From: an uncultured Candidatus Saccharibacteria bacterium
GTDB taxonomy: Bacteria; Patescibacteriota; Dojkabacteria; J137
Length of the DNA: 64,000 nt
Direction of reading: 5' to 3'
Assembly: GCA_964620955.1 (NCBI GenBank)
Contig: CAZUKH010000001.1
Coordinates: 124,593-188,592, forward strand
The notes under the pieces were generated by a model. That model made no database searches. It saw only the letters and a list, made by a program, of their open reading frames with translations, and was not told where the DNA came from. Position numbers and translations under genes: made by a program. Shown piece by piece: positions 2,826 to 26,854 of this stretch (position 1 is the first letter of the stretch; every line of letters begins with the position of its first letter).

Positions 2826-5471
2826 ATGTATATTCAAAGACGATTTTTGTTATTAACTGTTATTCTCCTGACTATTGCAAGCTTTGCACTTGTGATTACT
2901 GGGCCTGCATATGCTCAGGAAGAGCCAACAAGCAGCCTCGATGTGACTTCTTTTCTTACAAGCCAAGAATTTAGTGTTGACATAAACCCTGATGCTCTAG
3001 CATATGCATTTGAGTGGAATAAAGGTGGTTATTTTGAGTTTAAGACGAATGGCTCTGTGAATGAATACGAACATATCGAAGAGATGACTGATGGGCCTGA
3101 GAACTTATCAAACAAATCCATATCGGAACTTTACTATATTAATGAAAGTGAAACACAAATATTTATTAAAAACTCTTCTGCATCGGAACTTAAAATAAAA
3201 TGGGTTTGGTTAACTCAGCCCCAAAAAGACAAGGGAGATCAAAGGATATCCTCAAATAACCTAACTAACCCTACCCACGTTAACCTGGATTCAGGCGCTA
3301 ATTATTCAACACTTCCGATTGTTTCACGAAGCATGTGGGGAGCCAACGAAGAATCCTCTTCTGTTTGGCCACCAGAGTATAAAGCAGTAGAAAGATTTAT
3401 TATTCATCATACAGTCATTACCAATTCCAACTTCATGACTGCAGTTCAGCTTATTTATAACTACCATACTTATACAAATGGATGGGGTGATATAGGCTAC
3501 AATTATTTAATTGACCCTAATGGGGTAATTTATGAAGGCAGGAAAGGTGGAGATAATGCTATAGGTGCGCATGCATATATGCAAAATGGACGCTCAATGG
3601 GTATTTCGTTTATTGGAGACTTTTCTTATGTTCTTCCATCTAATACTGCACTTGCAAGTTTTAGAAGTTTTATTGCCGAAAAGTCCATTTTGCATGGTAT
3701 ACCACTTGTTTGGGGGGAAACAGTTTTTGGCCATAGAGATATGCCGGAGAATTCGACAGCATGTCCTGGGAACGCCTTTTATGCAGCACTCCCAACAATT
3801 ATTTCCGAAGCAAATTCAGTTAGAGCCAATTTATCTTCCGGAACTTTGAGTCAGGCATATGCAAGTATGATTAACAATACTAATAATTACTACGATAACA
3901 GGTTAACTATTAAATTTGTGAATTCTCAATTAACTGAGAACGAAGCTTTAGCCTTACTCCCCAAAAACAGTGGCATTACTGATGTTGATTATGCTAATGG
4001 AGAAGCATTTATTACATTTGAAAGCTTTACATGGTATGGAGGCGAATACTTTGATGATACTCTAGATAGAGTAAAATTCGCCTATTTGATTTTTCTTTTA
4101 GACCCAAACATTCAAAGTATTGAACTAGCTCCTGAAGGGCCTTATGATTATGGAGATGCACCCGAAACCTATTCAACATCTACTGCATCACATTTAAGAA
4201 CAGCACAAAGCCCTTACTTTGGAAGCGGGGTTGATGGTGAAGAGTCTGCTTTGGTAGATACAGCTGCTACAGGAGATGATAATAGAAGAACCACAGCCCT
4301 TGCAGATGATGAAGATGGCGTAAGTTACACAGAGCTTAGAGGAGGGTTTACAGGTAATATAACTCTTTCGATTGGAGCTGCTGGGTATGTAAAGCTATGG
4401 GTAGATTTTGGCAATGATGGTACTTTTGCAGAGGCTTCAGACAAAGTATACGACGGCTACCTTGAAATAGGACTTCATGAAGTTGATGTAGCTGTACCTC
4501 AAACAATAAGCCAAGGAACCACATTTGCTAGAGCGAGAATAAGCAGTCAAAATACATTTAGTTACAATGATGCAGCTATTGATGGGGAGGTTGAAGATAT
4601 TAGAGTTTGGATTCATGAATGGTCAGACCTTTTTGACTCTGTGGGAAATACAAATCAGCCTGTTGCTACTCAAAAGTTTGGAGACAAATACTTCCAGGTG
4701 CTTTCGTCTAATACTTGGCCATACGTGATTTATGTTAGAAACTCAAGTGACGGACATAACTGGACTCAGTGGAGTGCTGAGTTAAACGGCTACAGTCACA
4801 GAGAACCATCACTAGCAATATTCCAGAATAGGCTTTATTTGTCGGTTTCAGGGACTGATAATAGAATTTATACCAAATCTATGGACATGGGTGGTACATG
4901 GGATAGCAAATGGGCCGAGACTGGCGGGACAACACTTGAAGGTGTTGGAATTGGAAGTGGGAACCTAAATGGTACAGAAATGCTTTTTCAAATAGTTAAG
5001 AGTAGTAACGATACAAATATTTACGTTCGACAAACTAAAGATGGAGTTTTTGATTACAATTCACCCGAAGAAAAGTGGAAAATCTTTGGAGGATTTACTA
5101 ATAAAAAGCCATCCTTATCTTCAATTAATGGAAAGTTAATTGCCACAGTAGCAGGTACGGATAGTAGAATTTACTTACGAACATCGATAGATGGTGTTAA
5201 CTGGTCTAACTGGGCTGAAAAGGGTGGGCTTACTTTTGAGGCGCCAGTAATTAGTTTAGAAAATAATCTTCTTTACCAAACTGTTAAAAGCATTGAAGAC
5301 AATTCTTTGTATTATAGGTCTACTTCCGACCTGCAAAACTGGACACCCTGGAAACAAATAAAAATCAACGCAGATAAGGCAGGGGCAATCATAATTTCTA
5401 ATAGCGTTCTTGGCATATACGTGCCTTCGGGCAGCTTGCTAAGGTATTCTACTTCGGTAAAATCTCTTTAG
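2826..5471 (+). CDS. Secreted multidomain protein: signal peptide + N-acetylmuramoyl-L-alanine amidase (PGRP/Amidase_2) + GEVED domain + BNR/sialidase-like beta-propeller repeats
   Basis: Signal peptide MYIQRRFLLLTVILLTIASFALVITGPAYAQ. Amidase_2 signatures: IIHHT, DIGYNYLIDPNGVIYEGR, GAHA, C-terminal ACPG. GEVED signature: YDYGDAPETY ... FGNDGTF. Repeated S-x-D-G-x-x-W motifs (SSDGHNWTQW, SMDMGGTWDSKW, SIDGVNWSNW, STSDLQNWTPW). Confidence 0.8.
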   Translation: MYIQRRFLLLTVILLTIASFALVITGPAYAQEEPTSSLDVTSFLTSQEFSVDINPDALAYAFEWNKGGYFEFKTNGSVNEYEHIEEMTDGPENLSNKSISELYYINESETQIFIKNSSASELKIKWVWLTQPQKDKGDQRISSNNLTNPTHVNLDSGANYSTLPIVSRSMWGANEESSSVWPPEYKAVERFIIHHTVITNSNFMTAVQLIYNYHTYTNGWGDIGYNYLIDPNGVIYEGRKGGDNAIGAHAYMQNGRSMGISFIGDFSYVLPSNTALASFRSFIAEKSILHGIPLVWGETVFGHRDMPENSTACPGNAFYAALPTIISEANSVRANLSSGTLSQAYASMINNTNNYYDNRLTIKFVNSQLTENEALALLPKNSGITDVDYANGEAFITFESFTWYGGEYFDDTLDRVKFAYLIFLLDPNIQSIELAPEGPYDYGDAPETYSTSTASHLRTAQSPYFGSGVDGEESALVDTAATGDDNRRTTALADDEDGVSYTELRGGFTGNITLSIGAAGYVKLWVDFGNDGTFAEASDKVYDGYLEIGLHEVDVAVPQTISQGTTFARARISSQNTFSYNDAAIDGEVEDIRVWIHEWSDLFDSVGNTNQPVATQKFGDKYFQVLSSNTWPYVIYVRNSSDGHNWTQWSAELNGYSHREPSLAIFQNRLYLSVSGTDNRIYTKSMDMGGTWDSKWAETGGTTLEGVGIGSGNLNGTEMLFQIVKSSNDTNIYVRQTKDGVFDYNSPEEKWKIFGGFTNKKPSLSSINGKLIATVAGTDSRIYLRTSIDGVNWSNWAEKGGLTFEAPVISLENNLLYQTVKSIEDNSLYYRSTSDLQNWTPWKQIKINADKAGAIIISNSVLGIYVPSGSLLRYSTSVKSL

Positions 5472-5979: not shown

Positions 5980-7190
5980 TAGAGCTTGTTTTTTATATGA
6001 AAGCAGTCTTTAACGAGTGCTTCGTATCGTGGAAAAACAGCTTCCCAAGTAAATCTTTTGGCAAATTGAATATTGTTCTCCCTTATTTTTTGTAAATCAT
6101 TAAAGTTTGAAACAATTTCAATAATACATTGAGAAAGGGCTTTAATATCAGCGAAATTGTATGATTTCCCTGTCTTTTCTGTAATTAGCAAATCTACTGC
6201 TTCATTTTGATTAGTTGTAATTATTGCATTACCCTTCGCCATTGCTTCAAGTAAAACAATACCTGTTGCCTCCCATTTACTTGGCAAAATATTTATTTGC
6301 GATTCCTCGTAAAAAACTCTGTCGCGCTCTTCATCGCTTGGTGAATATATAAATTTTACCTTTTCTTCAAGATTTAATTGTTCTATCAAAGATTTTAGCT
6401 TTGCTGTGTAGCCTCCCGGTCTACCCATTATGTAAAATCTCAATGATTCAAAAATCTTGACTTGCTTCCTTCGAATTATTTCTAAAGCTTGCAATACATC
6501 TTGAATACCTTTGTACCACTCCATTCTGTTCATAAATGTTATTACAACTGGCTCATGCTTTAAATGTTCGTAGGGTTTTTGGGCAATGTACTCTTCATCA
6601 ATACCATTTGGTATAGTAAAGATCTTCTTTTCATCGATACCATAGTCTTTTGTCATCCAGTCTTTTTGCTTAGGAACAACTGCTACAATAACATCATATA
6701 TTTTTGGTATTAAAAACCGAAGAATGCGCGTGTAAAAGCTTTTTGCAAAACCTCTTAACCCCTTGGAATCGCCGAGCGCCATAAATGGTCCATGTGGGGT
6801 ATTTATAAATAGAGTTTTTTTTGCAAATAGCCTTTTTATTGATAAACATATTTCTACCCAAATAAATCCAAACCCCGACACATGAATAACATCAAACTTG
6901 CTGTTTAAAAGGCGTGTGAAAAGCCTGGGATAAACTCCCAAATATAAAGCCTCGTTAAACGCCCAATGCCTAATAATTTTTATTCCATTAAAATTTGCAT
7001 AAGGAGTTAATTTTTCATTACGGAACTTTATGTTTGTTGTATAAACCGTTACATCATGCCCTTGTTTTACCATTCTTCTTGCAAGGGCTAAAAAATTACT
7101 TTCAGCTCCGCCTTTAAATGGGTGAAATCGGGGGACTATATAAAGAACTTTGAGACTTGTGTTACTCTGGTTTTGTTGTGTGTTATTCAT
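5979..7190 (-). CDS. Glycosyltransferase family 4 (GT4)
   Basis: PRFHPFKGGAESNFLALARRMVKQGHDV near the N-terminus and EATGIVLLEAMAKGNAIITT (E-x7-E) near the C-terminus. Start placed at the internal MNNTQQ (7190) because the longer ORF to 7304 overlaps tatD. Confidence 0.75.
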   Translation of the reverse strand: MNNTQQNQSNTSLKVLYIVPRFHPFKGGAESNFLALARRMVKQGHDVTVYTTNIKFRNEKLTPYANFNGIKIIRHWAFNEALYLGVYPRLFTRLLNSKFDVIHVSGFGFIWVEICLSIKRLFAKKTLFINTPHGPFMALGDSKGLRGFAKSFYTRILRFLIPKIYDVIVAVVPKQKDWMTKDYGIDEKKIFTIPNGIDEEYIAQKPYEHLKHEPVVITFMNRMEWYKGIQDVLQALEIIRRKQVKIFESLRFYIMGRPGGYTAKLKSLIEQLNLEEKVKFIYSPSDEERDRVFYEESQINILPSKWEATGIVLLEAMAKGNAIITTNQNEAVDLLITEKTGKSYNFADIKALSQCIIEIVSNFNDLQKIRENNIQFAKRFTWEAVFPRYEALVKDCFHIKNKL

Positions 7191-13106: not shown

Positions 13107-14168
13107 ATGCAAATTCTAGGTGTATCGACAAAAGATCAAGAAGAAGCGGTAAATATTTTAGCTAAAGGAGGTCTTGTTATTTACCCAACTGAAACTGCAT
13201 ACGGCGCAGGTGTTGATGCTACAAATAAATTAGCAGTGGGTAAACTCCTCGAGTTTAAAAAACGCCCTACTGGTAAAGCAATATCAATTGCTTGTAGCTC
13301 ATATAGCATGGCCCAAAGTTATGTAATAATAAATAAAGCAGCTGACAATTTGTATAAAGAATTTCTTCCGGGGCCTCTTACTATTGTATCTTTTTCTAAA
13401 AATAAAGTAGATAAACGTCTTGAGTCTGAGGATAGCACTTTGGGTGTAAGAATCCCGAATAATGAATTTGCGCTAGGAATGATTGAGAAACTTAAAAGGC
13501 CCGTTACTGCTACATCTGCAAACTCTTTCGGTAACGCCACTCCTTACTCAATAGAATCCATACTTGAAAATTTAACTGAAAAACAAAAGTCTATTGTAGA
13601 TTTAATAATTGATGCGGGGCATCTTCCAAAAAGGTTGACTTCAACAGTTGTTGATACAACAAGAAATACATTAAGAACTTTTCGCAAAGGAGCTATTAAG
13701 TTTGGATCTAATAAACCTCAAAAAGTAATTGTTAGTAAAAATGTTGAAGAAACACTAAACCTAGCCGAAATACTCACCAAAAACTTACTAAGCGATGGTT
13801 TTAATAACATTGTTTATCTATTATCTGGGGAGCTAGGTGCGGGCAAAACACATTTTGCGAAAGGGGTGGCAAAAGCCTTAGGGGTAAACGCAGTAGTTAA
13901 ATCTCCTACTTATGGATATGTGTCTGAATATAAAATACCTTATTCAACTCAAAAGTTTATACATGTTGACGCCTGGAAAATCGTTAATAAAAGAGAACTC
14001 GAAGCGCTAGGCCTTAATAATTTGATTAAAACTTCAAAGGTTGTGGTTATCGAATGGCCTGAAGTAATTGAAAATCTTGATAAAGACTTTTTTAATAAGT
14101 TTAAACCAATTGCAGTGTATATTGACTCGATTGATGAGCAAACAAGAAAAATGAGTATTTTCCAATAA
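13107..14168 (+). CDS. Fusion protein: L-threonylcarbamoyladenylate synthase TsaC/YrdC domain + tRNA t6A biosynthesis ATPase TsaE (YjeE) domain
   Basis: N-terminal: LAKGGLVIYPTETAYGAGVDATN...LLEFKKRP (YrdC/Sua5). C-terminal: LLSGELGAGKTHFAKGVAKALGV..KSPTYGYVSEY...HVDAWKI...IEWPE (TsaE P-loop). Confidence 0.8.
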   Translation: MQILGVSTKDQEEAVNILAKGGLVIYPTETAYGAGVDATNKLAVGKLLEFKKRPTGKAISIACSSYSMAQSYVIINKAADNLYKEFLPGPLTIVSFSKNKVDKRLESEDSTLGVRIPNNEFALGMIEKLKRPVTATSANSFGNATPYSIESILENLTEKQKSIVDLIIDAGHLPKRLTSTVVDTTRNTLRTFRKGAIKFGSNKPQKVIVSKNVEETLNLAEILTKNLLSDGFNNIVYLLSGELGAGKTHFAKGVAKALGVNAVVKSPTYGYVSEYKIPYSTQKFIHVDAWKIVNKRELEALGLNNLIKTSKVVVIEWPEVIENLDKDFFNKFKPIAVYIDSIDEQTRKMSIFQ

Positions 14169-19691: not shown

Positions 19692-22600
19692 TTGTTTTTG
19701 CGTTTTTTAAATAAAACAATACGGCTCAAAGAATGGCAGCTGGATATTTTTTCAGCTTTTGTTTTGCTGGGTGGTATTTTCGCTGGCGTAATTCTTGCTG
19801 TTGCAGGTTTAATTCCATTAATTAATGCTGATGTTACTAATTTAATTACGCTTACCTCAGATGCATCGTTTAACACTGGTAGTTATGCTAGTACAAATAT
19901 AACCGGAGCGGGAGATGGTGCCTCTGTACAGTTAACACCTGGCGGCGCTGGATGGCTTGACCCAGCATGGACTTACCGACGGGATATTACAATTAACAAC
20001 CCTAATACTTCTACTCTAACTGAGTACCAGGTACTTATTACTCTTAATACTAGTAACTTTAATTATGCAAATGTTCAAAATGATTGTGATGATATTCGTT
20101 TTGCCAATAATGCTGGCCAACTTTTAAGCCATTATCAGCTTGTGTGTAATACAAGCGGTGTAAGTCAATTTTGGGTTAAAGTAGATTCACTTGCAGCAAG
20201 TTCCGATACTACAATACAGGTTTATTTCGGCAATGCTTCCGCAACTAGCGGTTCAAACGAAGTGGCAACCTTTTCATACTCATCAGCTAAAACTGTTGGT
20301 TATATAATAAATGACAGGGTTAATGAAGCATCAGTAATCAGTCTTATTGCAAATAATCAAATTATTCATAATTCACAAACTTTTAATCTTAATGAATATG
20401 AAACTAATTACTTTCCTTTAGTTAACAGAAGTTTACCAATACAAGCTAAAGGATTATTTAATTTTAAAGATCCTGATACAGATAATGATACATTTGTACC
20501 GGTTTCATTTGCAGGTACAAACTTTAGATTTACAACAAGAGAAAGTGGAACAGATACCGAAGATTTTTGGATGATTAGTCCATGGGGTAGTGCTACAGTA
20601 ACAATAGCCGGTGATGGCGGGGCAGCATGCCAAACACTTACAGTTACAGGCACAGCTGCGGTTAACGGGTCTGGCTGTAATTTAGCAGCGGGTATTACTT
20701 TTAAAATAACCAGTACAATACCAATTCTTGTTTTTTACGACGGGAATGCTAATCAAATTTCTCCAATTATGCCAGTTGAAAATGGACCATGGTACGGAGT
20801 GCCAAGCAGGACTCTAATGATTTCAGCAGCCGATAGTGGAGCAAACACAACTTACTTTAGATCCGACAACGCAAATGCTTACAATAATGCAATTGCAGCA
20901 AACAGGGATTTAACCCAAGCTACAGCATACGCGTCTTATGCTTCGGGACCCGCACTAAAAATAACAGGAGATAACCCAATTTTTGCATCAGCATGGAACG
21001 ATGGTAACGGGAATGACGGCGTGTCATTTATGCCTTGGAATAAACTTGGCACGCGATTTGGAGGTGCAACTGTTGTTGACTATATAGCTATTGCCTCACC
21101 CTACCCTGCTACTTGCCGTGTTTACAATGCATTAACTCAAACTCTAGTCGCAAGTGGTACAGCATCATCATTAAATTCAGAAGTTTATATGCTTGGGTTT
21201 GGTACTGGAAATTCTAATACTTATGTTAACGGTCCGTGGTATGTTGATTGTGACAAGCCTGTGTACCTTTACGCTGAAATGTCTGCAGACGCAGAAACGC
21301 AAGTTTATACATATGAGCAAATGAGGCAGTTTGTTTACCCAACGCCTGCAATGAATTCAACACTTGGTAACGAAGAAGGCTCAATTCCTGGAAGCGGCAC
21401 ATGGGAATCAGCAGGAAATCAAAATGCAATAGATTTAAAGTGGAATGGAGGATGGGGAGATGGCACTGGAACATCAGTGGGTTTTGAAGCAAGTGTTTCT
21501 AATGTAGGAGCAAATGCAAATATTGCATTTCAAATTAGGGCAGCATCTAGCCTGGCCAACTTAACATCAACAAGCTATCAAACTTTAGGCGTAGCAAGTT
21601 CAGGTACCAGTTTTACAGTTACTAAAGATGAGCTTGACACTCTTGGCGTACCTACTGGTTTAAATGGTAGGTACATTCAAATTAAAGCAACACTCAACTC
21701 AATTGATGGTTTTATAAACCCAGTACTTGAAAGTTTTGGGGTAAGATACCAAGCTGATAACTCAGGTCCATCTGTAAACGCTTCGGGAATTCAGCTCTTT
21801 AAAAGTTCAACTGGCGGTGAAGTCACAACAGACAACTGGCTTAATAATATTGCTCCATACTTTTCATGGAGTGAAGGCTCAGATACACAATCTGAAATTG
21901 GTGGGTTTTGCTTGTACATAGGAAACGATATTAATGGTGACCCTGCAATTACTGAGGGTATTTTGGGTGATAGTGGTTTTAGCGTACCTGGTGCAGACTG
22001 CCCTTTTCAAATAGAAACACCTTATATTGATTTTGCTACAACTGCTTTTAGAGGAAGCCAATGGCTTGAATCTGACACAATAAAGTACTATATGAAGGTT
22101 AAGTCAATCGACCGGGCAGGGAACGAATATCTTGGAACTGCAGCTTCATTTAGCTTTTACTATGATGATACGCCACCTACAACTCCATTCTTCATTTCTT
22201 TACCTTCGGGATTTGTTTCTTCAAAAGAAGTTACTATAACCTGGCCAACAGTAGGAAACGAGCGGGCTAAAGATGACCATTCACAGCTTGCTGGCTTGCA
22301 GTACAGAATAGGAAATAATGGTGTGTGGTATGGAGATTTGCATAATGGAGCTGAAAATCAAACTGACTTATTAGTTAATGATGGACATTACGTTACAATT
22401 GACCCTTATGATTTTGATGCGCTAAGCCAAGAGGTTAACTTGATTTACTTTAGGAGTTGGGATAACGCTGGAAATATATCTACTGCAACAGTTAGCGGAA
22501 CAATAAAGATTAACTCTAATGCACCAAGTAGCCCACAAAATCTTACAGTCACGCCATTAACCAATACAGTAAACTCCTATGCTTTTGAATGGGACCCACC

Positions 22601-24392
22601 TAGTAGTTATACCGGCCTTTTGAGTGGAATTACTTATTGTTACACTGTTAACACATTACCTTCGGCAGGTACCTGTATTTTTACAGGGCCAGGTGTAACA
22701 AACCTTGCTGCAGATGCATATGCTAACCTTCCAACAACTAATACACTTTACCTAGTAGCTAAAGATGAAGCTGGAAACATTAATTACTCAACATATACCC
22801 AGGTAGATTTTACGTATACAGGAACCGCTCCTGGTATTCCGCGTAATATTGAAGTTACAGATATTTCAATAAAAGATACTGCAAACTGGAGACTTTCTGT
22901 AACTTGGGAAATTCCCGAAAATATTGGTGCTGGTGTGAGCTCATATAAAATTTATAGATCTACCCAAGACTTAAGCTGTACAAACGATATTGAATCTTTT
23001 AGCCTTATTGATACTATTAAGGGTTCTACCTTTTACGCAAATACTGGTTTAAGCCAACAAACTTACTATTACTGCCTTAGAGCTTGTGATTCGGCAAACA
23101 ACTGCTCTGCTCCTTCTGAAGTTGCATCTGGATTTCCTGACGGAAGATTTACTAGCCCAGCTGAATTAATTTCAGGGCCAACTATAACAAACCTTTCTAC
23201 TCGCAGAGCAACTATAAACTGGGTAACAGTTCGAGGTTCCGATTCAAAAGTAGCATATGGAATTGCTCCTGACACATATTTTGAAGAAGAGCCATCAACT
23301 TCTACCCAGGTAAACGACCACGTTATAAACCTTTCGGGCTTACAGCCAGGAACCACCTACTACTACAGAGCAAAATGGACCGATGAAGATGGTAATACAG
23401 GAATAAGCCCTGAAAAATCTTTTACTACAGACCCTGCTCCTGTAATTAGAGATGTTTCGGTGGCAAGAGTTGGATTAGACAATGCTGTAATTAGGTTTAC
23501 AGCAAGAGGTGCTTATGGAGTTCAGCTTCGTTATGGGCTTACCACAAGTTTTGGTGGAGCTATTGAAATTGACTCTTCACCTGTTGAAAGCACTTACACT
23601 GCAATAATCGAAAATTTGCAAGACGGCACAAATTACTTTTACACAATCAACCCTTTTGATGGTGAAGGATTTACATACGAAGGAACTGTTTTAAATTTTG
23701 CAACTCTTCCAAGACCTCAAATAACAAATGTAGATATTGAAGAACAAAAAGGAAATGCACAACCTACAATAAAAATTACCTGGGAAACAAATACCCCTAC
23801 AAACTCAATTGCTACTTACTTTCCTGTAACTAACCCTGCATTTACTCGAGATCAAGTAGATATTAATTTAAAAGATGGTAAACATGAAATGACTTTAGCC
23901 GGACTGGAAGCAGAAACAACTTACAACCTGATTGTGAAAGCAGTTGATGCTTTTGGTAACCAGGCACAATCAGATACTATTAGCTTTACAACTGCAACAG
24001 ACAGCAGACCACCAGAAATTTTTAATTTAAAAGTAGAAGGCACTATTACTAACTTTTCGGAAAGTAGCACTGGCTCCGACCAGCAAAAAGCACAACTTAT
24101 TGTTTCGTGGGATACTGATGAACCTGCAACAAGTCAAGTAGAGTTTGGACAAGGAAGTGCCTCAGTTTATACACAAAAAACACAACAAGATCAAAATCTT
24201 ACTTTCAACCATTTAGTTGTAATTTCAAACCTTACACCTTCGCAGGTTTATAGCCTTCGAGTGATTTCTGCTGATAGCGCTGGCAATGAGGGTTTGTCGG
24301 ACAATTCTGTTACTATAACTCCTAAGGTTGTAAGTTCAGCTTTAGACTTAGTGTTTTCAAATCTACTTGAAATATTTGGTTTTTTGCGATGA
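19692..24392 (+). CDS. Giant (1566 aa) membrane-anchored surface protein: N-terminal TM, DUF2341 domain, long array of Fn3-like / purple-acid-phosphatase-N-like beta-sandwich repeats
   Basis: TTG start. TM segment FSAFVLLGGIFAGVILAVAGLI. DUF2341 signatures: WxYRRDITINN...DCDDIRFANNAGQLLSHYQL...FWVKVDSL...IQVYFGN. Repeated TxxW..., GTTYYYR and YY-rich beta-sandwich motifs. Low-complexity S/T/G/N-rich linkers. Confidence 0.7.
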   Translation: MFLRFLNKTIRLKEWQLDIFSAFVLLGGIFAGVILAVAGLIPLINADVTNLITLTSDASFNTGSYASTNITGAGDGASVQLTPGGAGWLDPAWTYRRDITINNPNTSTLTEYQVLITLNTSNFNYANVQNDCDDIRFANNAGQLLSHYQLVCNTSGVSQFWVKVDSLAASSDTTIQVYFGNASATSGSNEVATFSYSSAKTVGYIINDRVNEASVISLIANNQIIHNSQTFNLNEYETNYFPLVNRSLPIQAKGLFNFKDPDTDNDTFVPVSFAGTNFRFTTRESGTDTEDFWMISPWGSATVTIAGDGGAACQTLTVTGTAAVNGSGCNLAAGITFKITSTIPILVFYDGNANQISPIMPVENGPWYGVPSRTLMISAADSGANTTYFRSDNANAYNNAIAANRDLTQATAYASYASGPALKITGDNPIFASAWNDGNGNDGVSFMPWNKLGTRFGGATVVDYIAIASPYPATCRVYNALTQTLVASGTASSLNSEVYMLGFGTGNSNTYVNGPWYVDCDKPVYLYAEMSADAETQVYTYEQMRQFVYPTPAMNSTLGNEEGSIPGSGTWESAGNQNAIDLKWNGGWGDGTGTSVGFEASVSNVGANANIAFQIRAASSLANLTSTSYQTLGVASSGTSFTVTKDELDTLGVPTGLNGRYIQIKATLNSIDGFINPVLESFGVRYQADNSGPSVNASGIQLFKSSTGGEVTTDNWLNNIAPYFSWSEGSDTQSEIGGFCLYIGNDINGDPAITEGILGDSGFSVPGADCPFQIETPYIDFATTAFRGSQWLESDTIKYYMKVKSIDRAGNEYLGTAASFSFYYDDTPPTTPFFISLPSGFVSSKEVTITWPTVGNERAKDDHSQLAGLQYRIGNNGVWYGDLHNGAENQTDLLVNDGHYVTIDPYDFDALSQEVNLIYFRSWDNAGNISTATVSGTIKINSNAPSSPQNLTVTPLTNTVNSYAFEWDPPSSYTGLLSGITYCYTVNTLPSAGTCIFTGPGVTNLAADAYANLPTTNTLYLVAKDEAGNINYSTYTQVDFTYTGTAPGIPRNIEVTDISIKDTANWRLSVTWEIPENIGAGVSSYKIYRSTQDLSCTNDIESFSLIDTIKGSTFYANTGLSQQTYYYCLRACDSANNCSAPSEVASGFPDGRFTSPAELISGPTITNLSTRRATINWVTVRGSDSKVAYGIAPDTYFEEEPSTSTQVNDHVINLSGLQPGTTYYYRAKWTDEDGNTGISPEKSFTTDPAPVIRDVSVARVGLDNAVIRFTARGAYGVQLRYGLTTSFGGAIEIDSSPVESTYTAIIENLQDGTNYFYTINPFDGEGFTYEGTVLNFATLPRPQITNVDIEEQKGNAQPTIKITWETNTPTNSIATYFPVTNPAFTRDQVDINLKDGKHEMTLAGLEAETTYNLIVKAVDAFGNQAQSDTISFTTATDSRPPEIFNLKVEGTITNFSESSTGSDQQKAQLIVSWDTDEPATSQVEFGQGSASVYTQKTQQDQNLTFNHLVVISNLTPSQVYSLRVISADSAGNEGLSDNSVTITPKVVSSALDLVFSNLLEIFGFLR

Positions 24393-26854
24393 ATTTGAAT
24401 TTAGATCAAGCCAAAACAGAACAACCCCCCAAAACAAGTGTTATCAGGCTAAGGAACGTAAATAAAATTTTCCAGGTAAAAAGTCAGAATATTTGGGTAC
24501 TAAAAGATATAAACCTTGAAATAGGTAGCGGAGAGTTTGTAATAATTTTTGGACCGTCTGGATCGGGAAAATCTACCATGCTTCATATTATGCTTGGACT
24601 GGAAAAACCAACTGCTGGCGAGTCTTATCTTTTTGATACACCAATAAATAATGTTACCGAAACTCAAATGTGCTTATTACGAAAACGTAGTGTAGGAATT
24701 GTTTACCAGCAACCTAACTGGATTAAATCTTTACCTGTTATTGATAATGTAGGGTTTCCTTTGTCTTTAAAAGGGGTTAATAAGGAACAGGCGAGACTTG
24801 CTGCAACCGCTAAGTTGGCAGTTGTAGGAATGGCACAATGGAGTAATTATAGGCCTACTGAACTTTCATCGGGTCAACAACAGCGTGTAGCATTAGCAAG
24901 AGCATTGGTTGCAGAACCTGACCTTATAGTTGCTGATGAACCTACAGGTAACCTAGATGTTGTTAACGGAGATAGGCTAATGGATCTTTTTAAAGCACAA
25001 CAGGAAGCTGGTAAAACTATTATAATGGTTACCCACAACGTAGATTATTTAAAATATGCTACAAAAATTGTTCAATTTAGAGATGGATTTGTATTAAATG
25101 TTATTGACCCAAGAGGTAAAGATATAAAACTATTGCAAAAAGAATTAACTTCTGACCCCGACCCTAAACTTTTCCCTGATCAAGAAAAATATTCTCCTGC
25201 TGCGCTAGAAAGGTTTGTACAAACTTATGCCAGTGAACTTAATTTAGAGCAACCTAAAGTTAAAAAAGGCTTTACAAAAATTGTTCGAATTATTAGCAGG
25301 CGAATAGTTAGATTACCTCAAAACATAATTAAAGCTGCAGCCATTTATGTAAGTAAAACATTTGTAATAATGGCAGTGCTAAGCTCGATTTTATTTTATA
25401 AAGTTGTAAACATTTTGACTTATATTCCTTTAGTTAACAGATTATTTACTAAAAAAAGCAGCGAAAAGCTGGAAATGCGTGTGCATGGTTTTGTTGCTGG
25501 TTTAAGAAAATCTTACAAAGACAGAATAAGTTTAATAGATATTGCCGACATAGCAATGCATAACATGTTTAATAAAAGGGCAAGAAGTTGGATAACAATC
25601 GGTGGGGTGTCTATAGGTATAGCTTTTATTGTGTTTTTATTATCAATTGGATATGGTATTCAAGAGCTTGTTGTATCAAGAATAGCAACGTTAGATGAGC
25701 TAAAACAACTTGAAGCAAGGCCTGCAGTAAGCACCAACATTTCAATTACAGATGAAACTGTAAGTAAGTTCAAAGAGTTTGAGGGTGTTAATGAGGTTCA
25801 GACTGTTTTAAATATCGCAGGTCAAATCAGTTTTTCAAACTCACAAACCGATGCAGTGATTTTTGGTGCTCAATCAGATTACCTAAAAGCAACTGGAATA
25901 GATATTTCGAATGGAGAGCTTTTTAATAATAATGACATAGTCTCAACTCTTATTACTAAGGAATCACAAGAAGACATTACTCTTGCATCAGCAGATAATC
26001 CTAATAATCTGGTAGTGGAAACCCCCAATAGTAATGAATCGGGAAAAAATATGCTTGAATTACCCCAAAAAGAGCGTGTTGCTGTCATTAATACCCAGCT
26101 AGCTACTTTGTTAGGGCAGGAAGCTGATCAAATAATTGGCAAAGAGGTTGAAGTATCATTCATCTTTACTGGAGATCTTACAACTTCAGGTCAAAGAATG
26201 GAATCAATTGCTGTGCCGTATGAGGTAATTGGAGTAACACAAGATGGTGATACCCCTCAAATGTATGTACCGCTAATCGACTTAAAAGAAACTGGAGTAA
26301 CAAAGTATTCATTACTTAATGTAATAATGAGTAACTCAAATGCAGTTGAAGACGTGAGAAGGAGAATTGAGTTTTCTGGTTACCAAACTACTTCGGTGCT
26401 GGATACTGTGCTTCAAGTAGAATCCTTATTTAGCAGTGTTCGACTCGCACTTGGGATCGTTGGTGGCATTGCTTTATCGGTTGCTGCACTAGGCATGTTT
26501 AACACCTTAAGCGTTTCGCTTTTGGAACGTACTAGAGAAGTTGGTTTGATGAAGGCCATTGGCATGGTACCTAAAGAAGTGCAAGATCTTTTTATTACAG
26601 AAGCAATTGCTATGGGTTTTATTGGTGGCTTTGGGGGGTTATTTGTAGGTTTTATACTAGGCAAGATTATCTCGCTGTTTCTAAGTGCTATTGCAATTTC
26701 TAGGGGGTTTGGAGTTATTGATGTCACTTTTATTCCACCAAGCTTAGCCTTGTCTATTATGCTTCTTGCCGCTTTTGTAGGTACTTTAACTGGTTACCCC
26801 CCTGCAAACCGCGCAACAAGAATCTCAGCAATTAATGCTTTGCGATACGAATAG
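24389..26854 (+). CDS. Fused ABC transporter ATP-binding domain + FtsX/MacB-type permease with a large extracytoplasmic loop
   Basis: Walker A GPSGSGKST, signature LSSGQQQRVALARAL, Walker B IVADEPTGNLD. C-terminal 4-TM FtsX-like domain with a ~260 aa loop between TM1 and TM2. ATGA overlap with the upstream giant gene. Confidence 0.85.
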   Translation: MNLNLDQAKTEQPPKTSVIRLRNVNKIFQVKSQNIWVLKDINLEIGSGEFVIIFGPSGSGKSTMLHIMLGLEKPTAGESYLFDTPINNVTETQMCLLRKRSVGIVYQQPNWIKSLPVIDNVGFPLSLKGVNKEQARLAATAKLAVVGMAQWSNYRPTELSSGQQQRVALARALVAEPDLIVADEPTGNLDVVNGDRLMDLFKAQQEAGKTIIMVTHNVDYLKYATKIVQFRDGFVLNVIDPRGKDIKLLQKELTSDPDPKLFPDQEKYSPAALERFVQTYASELNLEQPKVKKGFTKIVRIISRRIVRLPQNIIKAAAIYVSKTFVIMAVLSSILFYKVVNILTYIPLVNRLFTKKSSEKLEMRVHGFVAGLRKSYKDRISLIDIADIAMHNMFNKRARSWITIGGVSIGIAFIVFLLSIGYGIQELVVSRIATLDELKQLEARPAVSTNISITDETVSKFKEFEGVNEVQTVLNIAGQISFSNSQTDAVIFGAQSDYLKATGIDISNGELFNNNDIVSTLITKESQEDITLASADNPNNLVVETPNSNESGKNMLELPQKERVAVINTQLATLLGQEADQIIGKEVEVSFIFTGDLTTSGQRMESIAVPYEVIGVTQDGDTPQMYVPLIDLKETGVTKYSLLNVIMSNSNAVEDVRRRIEFSGYQTTSVLDTVLQVESLFSSVRLALGIVGGIALSVAALGMFNTLSVSLLERTREVGLMKAIGMVPKEVQDLFITEAIAMGFIGGFGGLFVGFILGKIISLFLSAIAISRGFGVIDVTFIPPSLALSIMLLAAFVGTLTGYPPANRATRISAINALRYE

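Follow-up and report, generated by a model that had tools for sequence, protein, structure and literature searches.

A giant stalk-and-tail surface protein encoded with a MacB-type ABC transporter: a candidate two-component system of Patescibacteria-like bacteria

We analysed a 64,000-nucleotide stretch of contig CAZUKH010000001.1 (hereafter, the window), assigned to an uncultured Candidatus Saccharibacteria bacterium, which carries two overlapping genes on its forward strand. The first encodes a giant surface protein of 1566 residues and the second a MacB-type ABC transporter of 821 residues. Relatives of the two genes are found together almost always, and this linkage is not due to chance. 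The best reading of the module is a large, conserved two-component surface system of bacteria like those of the candidate phyla radiation (CPR, or Patescibacteria), made up of a giant fibre protein and a MacB-type transporter, and the pairing may be how these cells display attachment proteins. The initial annotation of the sequence had recognised no named system here, and in the searchable full-text literature, with subscription-only papers outside reach, we likewise found no account linking such giants to a MacB/FtsX-type transporter. What is new is a type VII ABC system with a new, apparently undescribed, class of partner.

A central question, still open for a very large share of bacterial diversity, is how ultra-small CPR/Patescibacteria recognise host cells and stay attached to them. 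Their large Fn3, LamG and DUF2341 proteins are routinely called candidate adhesins (PMC13059738, PMC11809585), and, in the only genetically tractable lineage, Fn3 and lectin-type proteins (adhesins) are required for growth as an epibiont (PMC10633639). A stalk-and-tail family that is wired almost always to its own MacB-type ATPase offers a concrete, testable unit. It would extend the repertoire of mechanotransmission (type VII) ABC proteins to a new class of partner, and stalk plus tail would give a sequence signature for finding displayed binding proteins in any CPR genome.

Linkage of the giant gene and the transporter gene

The stop codon of the giant and the start codon of the transporter share an ATGA ('...ttt ttg cgA TGA att...'), and both open reading frames (ORFs) lie where the initial annotation had placed them. 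The real start of the giant is probably the second TTG, at 19698, rather than the one at 19692, because it matches a 1564-residue database copy and puts AGAGG at 8-nt spacing. That copy is 100% identical to the giant of the window, and a 1546-residue orthologue is 45% identical and collinear with it from end to end. The gene is thus intact, and is neither the frameshifted pseudogene nor the assembly artefact that had been raised as a concern.

A metagenome scan was run with the C-terminal 222 residues of the transporter, since an alignment of its first transmembrane (TM) helix plus MacB_PCD domain held no stretch conserved enough for the scan. It returned 80 loci, and the start of the module was on the contig in 47. 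Where the nucleotide-binding domain (NBD) is a separate gene, the upstream check went past it to the next ORF, and the stalk was detected by tblastn with the C-terminal 907 residues of the window's giant. The stalk lies directly upstream of the transporter module in 44 of the 47 loci; in the remaining three, the contig extends just 144-643 bp upstream. In 18 loci a complete ORF of at least 1000 residues abuts the NBD (gaps of -29 to +48 bp), and in 17 the giant is an open ORF that runs off the contig. A small ORF separates the giant from the NBD in eight loci, and the giant is frameshifted in one. Six loci that had seemed to be exceptions, with a small ORF upstream, also contain the stalk by tblastn, and either an Avd-like or TM-plus-Fn3-like ORF has been inserted or the giant is frameshifted. 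The inserted ORFs (L120:7365-7775, L148:1529-1909, L136:7589-7816, L113:2336-2902 and L164:6906-7352) encode either a 23S-rRNA-IVP/Avd-like four-helix protein or a single TM segment with one Fn3-like domain.

In four of four independent genomes with unrelated flanks, an Fn3-rich protein of 1430-1657 residues ends 1-19 bp before the transporter. Conservation of the two genes as neighbours, on which the initial annotation had made its proposal depend, therefore holds across many related genomes with unrelated flanks. A scan with the full-length transporter alignment picked up generic Walker A and signature motifs, and the 80 generic MacB/LolD loci from other phyla that it returned served as a negative control. 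The stalk is missing from 78 of them, and the two that have it are the closest relatives of the query. Many control loci have a gene of ~400 residues in the operon position that the giant occupies in our module. In the reverse direction, six stalk-family proteins were found by sequence alone, and a transporter adjoins the giant in four of them (L168, L170, L172, L173). In L169, the stalk gene is followed by a second giant in tandem and then by the contig end. We refer to this as obligate gene linkage in the sense that it holds almost always.

These counts bear on the simplest alternative, that the neighbour of a large surface protein is, by chance, a generic MacB pump for efflux or antimicrobial-peptide resistance. 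MacB is the top NCBIfam match of the transporter, and some databases name its homologues 'antimicrobial peptide transport system'. However, the linkage is kept in more than 50 loci with different flanks and missing from 78 generic MacB loci, and in the window the genes overlap translationally. We find coincidence scarcely credible.

Tight linkage by itself is no proof of contact. The transporter might handle a lipid, glycolipid, wall precursor, peptide or other substrate by which the fibre is attached or modified, or remove what the head has caught, so that the two proteins are co-regulated but do not touch. The substrates of MacB-type proteins are indeed diverse, including macrolides and enterotoxin, heme (HrtBA), glycolipids (DevCA) and bacitracin-lipid complexes (BceAB), and these families are among the NCBIfam or fold matches. 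However, such indirect coupling fails to explain why it is precisely the C-terminal stalk and tail that accompany the transporter, with heads that swap freely. Also against it, flanking genes differ in every genome and no biosynthetic genes are conserved beside the pair. We consider indirect coupling improbable.

Stalk, tail and exchangeable heads

The giant matches Pfam above gathering thresholds at DUF2341 (residues 131-195, 48.5 bits), at three Pur_ac_phosph_N domains (80.9 bits) and at fn3 (61.5 bits), confirming the domains first named for it. DUF2341, taken earlier as the hallmark, turns out to be one of several heads. A search with the full-length giant and a word filter gave eight homologues, whereas an exhaustive search with the stalk only gave thousands; at least 1317 clusters at 50% identity match the stalk at E<=1e-30. 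In nearly all of the top 150 clusters the stalk is at the extreme C-terminus, in proteins of 900-4400 residues. All 29 of the other transporter-linked giants align with that of the window in a single collinear BLAST alignment, from residue ~660-690 to the last residue, at 38-53% identity. Conservation climbs towards the C-terminus, from ~0.5-0.6 at residues 700-1150 to 0.7-0.8 over the last 400 residues, within which the four clear Fn3/PAP-N units fall. The heads, on the other hand, are DUF2341 domains, one or two LamG domains or an FGE-sulfatase/C-type-lectin domain, and there is nearly none in forms of ~1070 residues. Judged by these alignments, the family is defined by a C-terminal stalk of ~900 residues plus the tail, not by DUF2341, and everything N-terminal of the stalk appears exchangeable, as a modular head on a conserved base.

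The tail follows a family motif, 'TITPKAT-x-x-AL-x-LV-x-x-NL-x-x-x-FGFL'. In the window it reads 'TITPKVVSSALDLVFSNLLEIFGFLR', with a best 15-residue hydropathy of 1.63 on the Kyte-Doolittle (KD) scale; the family range is 0.8-1.6, below TM grade, and the hydrophobic moment is 1.25-1.46. These values describe a tail that is predicted to be amphipathic and too weakly hydrophobic for a membrane span. LPXTG, PEP and PGF motifs are absent from it, as is any TM-grade segment. A signal peptide, a variable head, a conserved stalk and C-terminus and a dedicated membrane partner would, by analogy, follow the logic of C-terminally anchored surface proteins. The LPXTG/sortase, PEP-CTERM/exosortase and PGF-CTERM/archaeosortase systems likewise combine a signal peptide, a variable region, a conserved C-terminal tag and a co-occurring gene for a membrane partner. 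Their partner, however, is a transpeptidase and not an ABC transporter, their motifs and TM-grade segment are missing from the tail of the giant, and no sortase was found in the window.

The N-terminus of the giant was initially described as a TM anchor. Its hydrophobic core scores 2.67 on the KD scale and is followed by a signal-peptidase-type site, ...IPLINA↓DV. Many giants of the family have a pre-TM motif, RFQFNL or KWQLNL, ahead of the core (RLKEWQLDIF in the window) and a small-x-Ala site, 'xFA↓', 5-12 residues past it (LINA↓D in the window). In the shorter giants, the signal peptide is of an ordinary kind and the pre-TM motif is missing. By these motifs the segment looks like a long, cleavable Sec-type signal peptide, which seems likelier than an anchor.

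The head of the window's giant (residues ~47-660) is rare, being common to one Dojkabacteria protein and to a free-standing DUF2341 protein of an archaeon. The latter (P0282, 739 residues, Candidatus Micrarchaeota archaeon) has a counterpart of head residues 196-660 at 34% identity, a likeness that suggests exchange of binding modules between episymbiotic bacteria and DPANN archaea. A structural model of the head consists of beta strands throughout; its only resemblance is to carbohydrate-binding-module-like sandwiches, and it shows no catalytic fold. Stalk-less DUF2341 giants also exist, and they are not the ones that abut the transporter. One of them (L001:3769-9012, 1747 residues, DUF2341 plus CBM35) lies just upstream of an orthologous module.

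In some relatives the head is the target of a diversity-generating retroelement (DGR). In L005, L127 and L152, the giant is closely preceded by a reverse transcriptase (RT), an Avd gene and a template repeat, and the variable copy is inside the head. The variable repeat is 118-125 nt long, falls in an FGE-sulfatase/C-type-lectin head, ends '…GFRCA' and sits ~365-430 codons from the N-terminus. Mismatches are at template adenines, 17 of 20 in L005, 13 of 13 in L127 and 7 of 8 in L152; the variable repeat of L152 contains an in-frame stop. Because DGR targets are typically ligand-binding domains (PMC5758913) and the variable repeat is in the head, the distal head in this part of the family is read as a hypervariable binder. 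These C-type-lectin-type heads, with adenine-specific differences between template and variable repeat, resemble the DGR targets Treponema TvpA, Legionella LdtA and phage Mtd. They differ in where the variable repeat falls, ~400 codons from the N-terminus of a 1500-residue protein versus the C-terminus in most targets (PMC5758913). The original idea that the giant is a binding or display protein is backed by lectin-type heads that are modular and, in some members, diversified by DGRs. In the window no RT or Avd was found and the giant has no FGE-sulfatase/C-type-lectin head, so it is not counted as a DGR target.

DGRs with the RT on the opposite strand were also considered as mutators of giants and rejected, their target being a separate small Lcl_C protein. 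In L105/107, L115, L120 and probably L119, such a convergent cassette lies immediately upstream of a short-headed giant (~1070-1090 residues) and diversifies a secreted Lcl_C/DUF1566 protein of ~300 residues. More speculatively, the cassette may encode a separately made hypervariable tip protein for the stalks.

The MacB-type transporter

The transporter matches ABC_tran (residues 38-186, 98.6 bits), MacB_PCD (residues 400-661, 60.9 bits) and FtsX (residues 690-813, 58.4 bits), all above Pfam gathering thresholds and as first annotated. Walker A (G55-T63, K61), the signature residues S160, G162 and Q164, Walker B D183 with the catalytic E184, and the H-loop H216 are invariant in alignments of 20 and 45 sequences, so the reported Walker and signature motifs stand. 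An AlphaFold2 (AF2) model built on 45 homologues is confident (pLDDT 82.9, pTM 0.70). It places the NBD first, then a helical linker, TM1, an outer domain of mixed alpha/beta structure and three further TM helices (residues 670-713, 728-771 and 784-811). The secondary structure of the outer domain is compatible with the Porter and Sabre layout. A large extracytoplasmic loop had been predicted, correctly, although at ~235 residues (434-669) it is smaller in the model than the ~260 first given. Foldseek matches the full length to MacB (5gko, 5lil and 5nik; E 1e-33 to 1e-41, target-normalised TM-score 0.68-0.81). Because of these fold matches and the invariant catalytic motifs, we assign the protein to the MacB-type (type VII) ABC proteins with intact ATPase motifs.

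The assignment is to the type and not to any named member. The transporter scores 231.8 bits versus the 966 required for the MacB equivalog (PRK10535), 188.2 versus 264.85 for FtsE (TIGR02673) and 181.4 versus 307.75 for LolD (TIGR02211), and neither this transporter clade nor the stalk or tail of the giant is represented by a model in NCBIfam. Among proteins of solved structure, those nearest in sequence are the MacB of Acinetobacter, Aggregatibacter and E. coli, at ~20-22% identity. The best sequence and structure matches are to MacB of MacAB-TolC, which also shares the fold, the ATPase motifs and the order of NBD, TM1, periplasmic domain and TM2-4 in one polypeptide. In contrast to MacAB-TolC, no MacA/HlyD adaptor or TolC-type factor was found in the window, the partner gene encodes a giant Fn3 protein, the linker is longer by ~140 residues and contains a hydrophobic helix, and the host is probably a monoderm. 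The window scans for HlyD, MFP and OEP domains took in nearly all ORFs of at least 100 residues, and none of these domains is present among the listed neighbours of loci L001-L007. Streptococcus pneumoniae Spr0693-0694-0695 (5xu1) and Bacillus subtilis YknXYZ come closer in organisation, with the order extracytoplasmic partner, NBD, permease in a monoderm, and 5xu1 chains are among the fold matches. Their partner, however, is a channel-forming HlyD-type adaptor of ~400 residues, and here it is a giant Fn3 stalk and head without an HlyD domain.

The fusion of ATPase and permease, singled out at first as special, appears incidental and is not the novelty, because MacB of E. coli, Acinetobacter and Aggregatibacter is fused as well and most family members are split. 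The fused form is the minority in the family; most relatives have an NBD gene of ~250 residues followed by a permease gene of 650-700 residues. The linker between NBD and TM1 (~142 residues) is more distinctive, with exactly one segment above KD 1.6 in 96% of 45 fused homologues. This hydrophobic helix is missing from E. coli MacB, and the split permeases retain the same N-terminal extension. In the distant locus L170, the permease is of standard size (399 residues). The window's transporter belongs to a short class. Long-class transporters (930-990 residues; P0005, P0012, P0026 and others) have an insertion of ~170 residues in the extracytoplasmic domain, where the window's protein has a disordered loop (residues 519-552). 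The insertion motif, 'Y.I.P..FIRVR..P…G.vlGYTRRVEG', resembles a bacterial SH3 domain, and Pfam makes no call.

LolCDE, a MacB-type relative, extracts membrane-anchored proteins, and its structures are among the Foldseek matches. By this precedent, the transporter could act on the N-terminal hydrophobic segment or signal peptide of the giant, drawing it from the outer leaflet and so releasing the fibre to the wall, an S-layer or the medium, or clearing the signal peptide, with no permanent base. LolCDE is likewise a MacB-type machine that takes hold, on the outer-leaflet side, of the portion of a secreted protein lying in the membrane and moves it at the expense of ATP. The pre-TM motif and hydrophobic core are conserved at the N-termini of many giants, and the family-specific linker helix could touch a TM segment. 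However, shorter giants without the pre-TM motif still keep the transporter, and conservation peaks at the C-terminus, not the N-terminus. There is no lipobox Cys or lipoprotein signal in the giant (its signal region ends …IPLINA↓D), the LolD level is missed, and no LolA-like gene was seen. Extraction of this kind is in our view unlikely.

FtsEX, which activates an extracytoplasmic partner, raises the possibility of a wall-remodelling regulator, in which the giant would correspond to EnvC, PcsB or CwlO and be switched on and off as the cell divides or meets its host. FtsE is a relative of the ATPase, and FtsW is encoded nearby in the window. FtsEX with EnvC, PcsB, CwlO or RipC is in fact the best functional analogy for the mechanism that we propose below, being a type VII module that acts mechanically on an extracytoplasmic partner. 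But the FtsE cutoff is missed, the outer domain is of the MacB_PCD type, and the best full-length folds are MacB. The partner here is a fibre of ~1000-4000 residues with a lectin-type head rather than a hydrolase activator; no M23, CHAP, NlpC/P60, hydrolase or coiled-coil region was found in the giant. In addition, published CPR genome descriptions list ftsE and ftsX as separate division genes (PMC13059738, PMC11809585). A role of this kind seems remote.

A giant adhesin gene, an ABC gene and a conserved extreme C-terminus also recall LapA/LapBCE-type loci. By that model the ABC transporter would export the giant across the membrane, with the C-terminus directing secretion, in the manner of RTX adhesins and their type 1 systems. 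The likeness of LapA/LapBCE and SiiE/SiiCDF extends to a giant repetitive adhesin encoded beside a dedicated ABC transporter, whereas the ABC class, the export route and the envelope type all differ. LapA/SiiE-type adhesins are retained by an N-terminal plug in TolC, not by a C-terminal tail. The giant has a Sec-type signal of its own at the N-terminus, the transporter is built on the four-helix MacB/FtsX plan and not on the ABC_membrane exporter domain of type 1 systems, and no MFP or outer-membrane factor was found in the window. The giant has no RTX or HemolysinCabind match and no HlyD domain. Dedicated secretion is very improbable.

Proposed mechanism and genomic setting

MacB-type proteins act by mechanotransmission on extracytoplasmic partners: FtsEX on EnvC or PcsB, LolCDE on lipoproteins, MacB with MacA, and YbbAP with TesA. 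We lean, by a little, towards a fibre that is exported by Sec and whose base and tail, at the C-terminus, a MacB-type transporter holds or acts on from outside by mechanotransmission, with the head binding a host or particle ligand. The giant would be exported by Sec and its signal peptide removed. The last Fn3 domains and the tail, the most conserved part, would form the cell-proximal end, and the extracytoplasmic domain or an outer-leaflet groove of the transporter dimer would engage that end. Like FtsEX, LolCDE and MacB, the transporter would use ATP hydrolysed in the cytoplasm to move its outer domain (mechanotransmission), without pumping across the membrane, and might thereby anchor, load or release, or mechanically actuate the fibre. 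The distal head would bind the host or particle ligand. Five alternatives were ranked behind this one, in the order Lol-like extraction, indirect coupling, an FtsEX-like wall role, secretion like that of type 1 systems, and coincidence.

Several points weigh against the proposed mechanism. Physical contact between tail and transporter is something we infer, as is the adhesive role of the giant. Cleavage of the signal peptide is read from the motif, not from a predictor or proteomics, and the fold similarity that points to a binding role for the window's own head is weak. Our sample of loci comes from metagenomes and includes redundant ones (L001-4, L097/98, L105/107, L136-138). L171 has a stalk gene and no transporter within 5 kb downstream, and in L173 three giants, two of them downstream of the transporter, share a single one, so that strict 1:1 coupling and gene order are not universal. 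Finally, the mechanism leaves the conserved hydrophobic linker helix unexplained; a simple membrane crossing by that helix would invert the MacB topology.

A bolder and more tentative version is that the module forms a new surface organelle of CPR/Patescibacteria, with a modular and sometimes DGR-hypervariable adhesin fibre seated on a MacB-type mechanotransducer, in which ATP loads, releases, retracts or tensions the fibre during host attachment. If true, this would be the first adhesin known to be driven by a type VII ABC transporter, and the module would be a widespread device for host contact among episymbiotic bacteria.

Features of the module in the window, and DGR repeats and cassettes in related loci
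Feature	Position	Strand	Description or basis
Giant surface-protein gene	19692..24392	+	TTG start, 1566 residues; ORF and translation, Pfam, database copies
Long N-terminal signal peptide or anchor, residues 1-46	19692..19829	+	Pre-TM motif 'RLKEWQLDIF', core residues 23-41, putative site LINA↓D
Variable head, residues 47-659	19830..21668	+	DUF2341 jelly-roll, residues 131-195 (nt 20082-20276), and all-beta region without Pfam match
Conserved stalk, residues 660-1545	21669..24326	+	Four clear Fn3/PAP-N units at residues 1155-1250, 1256-1342, 1344-1440, 1456-1545
Conserved C-terminal tail, predicted amphipathic (…TITPK-VVSS-ALDLVFSNLLEIFGFLR, then stop)	24327..24389	+	Family motif, KD, hydrophobic moment
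MacB-type ABC transporter gene (NBD-permease fusion)	24389..26854	+	ATG start, 821 residues; Pfam, AF2, Foldseek
NBD, residues 17-239	24437..25105	+	ABC_tran 98.6 bits; invariant catalytic residues
Family-specific helical linker, residues 240-396, with one TM-grade helix at residues ~309-344	25106..25576	+	AF2 helices, KD
TM1, residues 397-433, and extracytoplasmic MacB_PCD, residues 434-669 (disordered loop 519-552)	25577..26395	+	Pfam, AF2
TM2-TM4 (FtsX domain, residues 670-811) and conserved C-terminus …ALRYE	26396..26854	+	FtsX 58.4 bits; AF2
DGR template / variable repeat	L005:3263-3387 / 6500-6624		
DGR template / variable repeat	L127:1072-1189 / 3709-3826		
DGR template / variable repeat	L152:732-851 / 4251-4370		
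Convergent DGR cassettes	L105:1846-4565; L115:482-3142; L120:2261-3998		Variable repeat at 3' end of target, then RT, Avd and template repeat on opposite strand

The pair is surrounded by chromosomal housekeeping genes, including trxA, trxB, ftsW, rpoB, rpoC, those for IF-2, S12 and S7, and tRNA synthetases, and the GC content of the window is ~35%. The named homologues belong to Doudna-, Woese-, Roizman-, Shapiro- and Dojkabacteria, which makes an origin in the CPR/Patescibacteria plausible, in agreement with the lineage first suggested. Promoter and terminator scans of the window gave fewer matches than shuffled sequence and are hence uninformative, and there were zero tRNA and zero Rfam matches. 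PADLOC gave generic ABC-ATPase similarity only; the module is not a catalogued defence system.

Other genomes show variations on the module. In L173 (1-20697), the stalk giants have 3105, 2898 and >2745 residues and surround one MacB-type permease, whose ATPase is a 570-residue protein with two ABC domains. A locus labelled uncultured Gammaproteobacteria (L008, CAYYYW010000001.1) has the stalk at 37% identity and a split transporter of the family type; either the label or binning of this metagenome-assembled genome is wrong, or the module occurs outside the CPR. A small membrane ORF with a ClpB-like double-AAA+ ATPase follows the module in L007 (12349-14825) and directly follows the giant in L171 (2960-5786), with 31% identity between the two loci. 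In L005 (1-20000), the pair sits among genes resembling those of type IV secretion or conjugation, encoding TrbC, a VirB4-like ATPase, a VirD4/TraG-like protein, a relaxase and an M23 peptidase.

Two further ORFs of the window, both on the forward strand, stood out. The one at 2826-5471 encodes an 881-residue protein with N-acetylmuramoyl-L-alanine amidase (Amidase_2) and GEVED domains, a large putative wall degrader for a small genome. The other, at 13107-14168, fuses Sua5/YrdC (TsaC) and TsaE, both of the t6A tRNA-modification pathway, in a single ORF.

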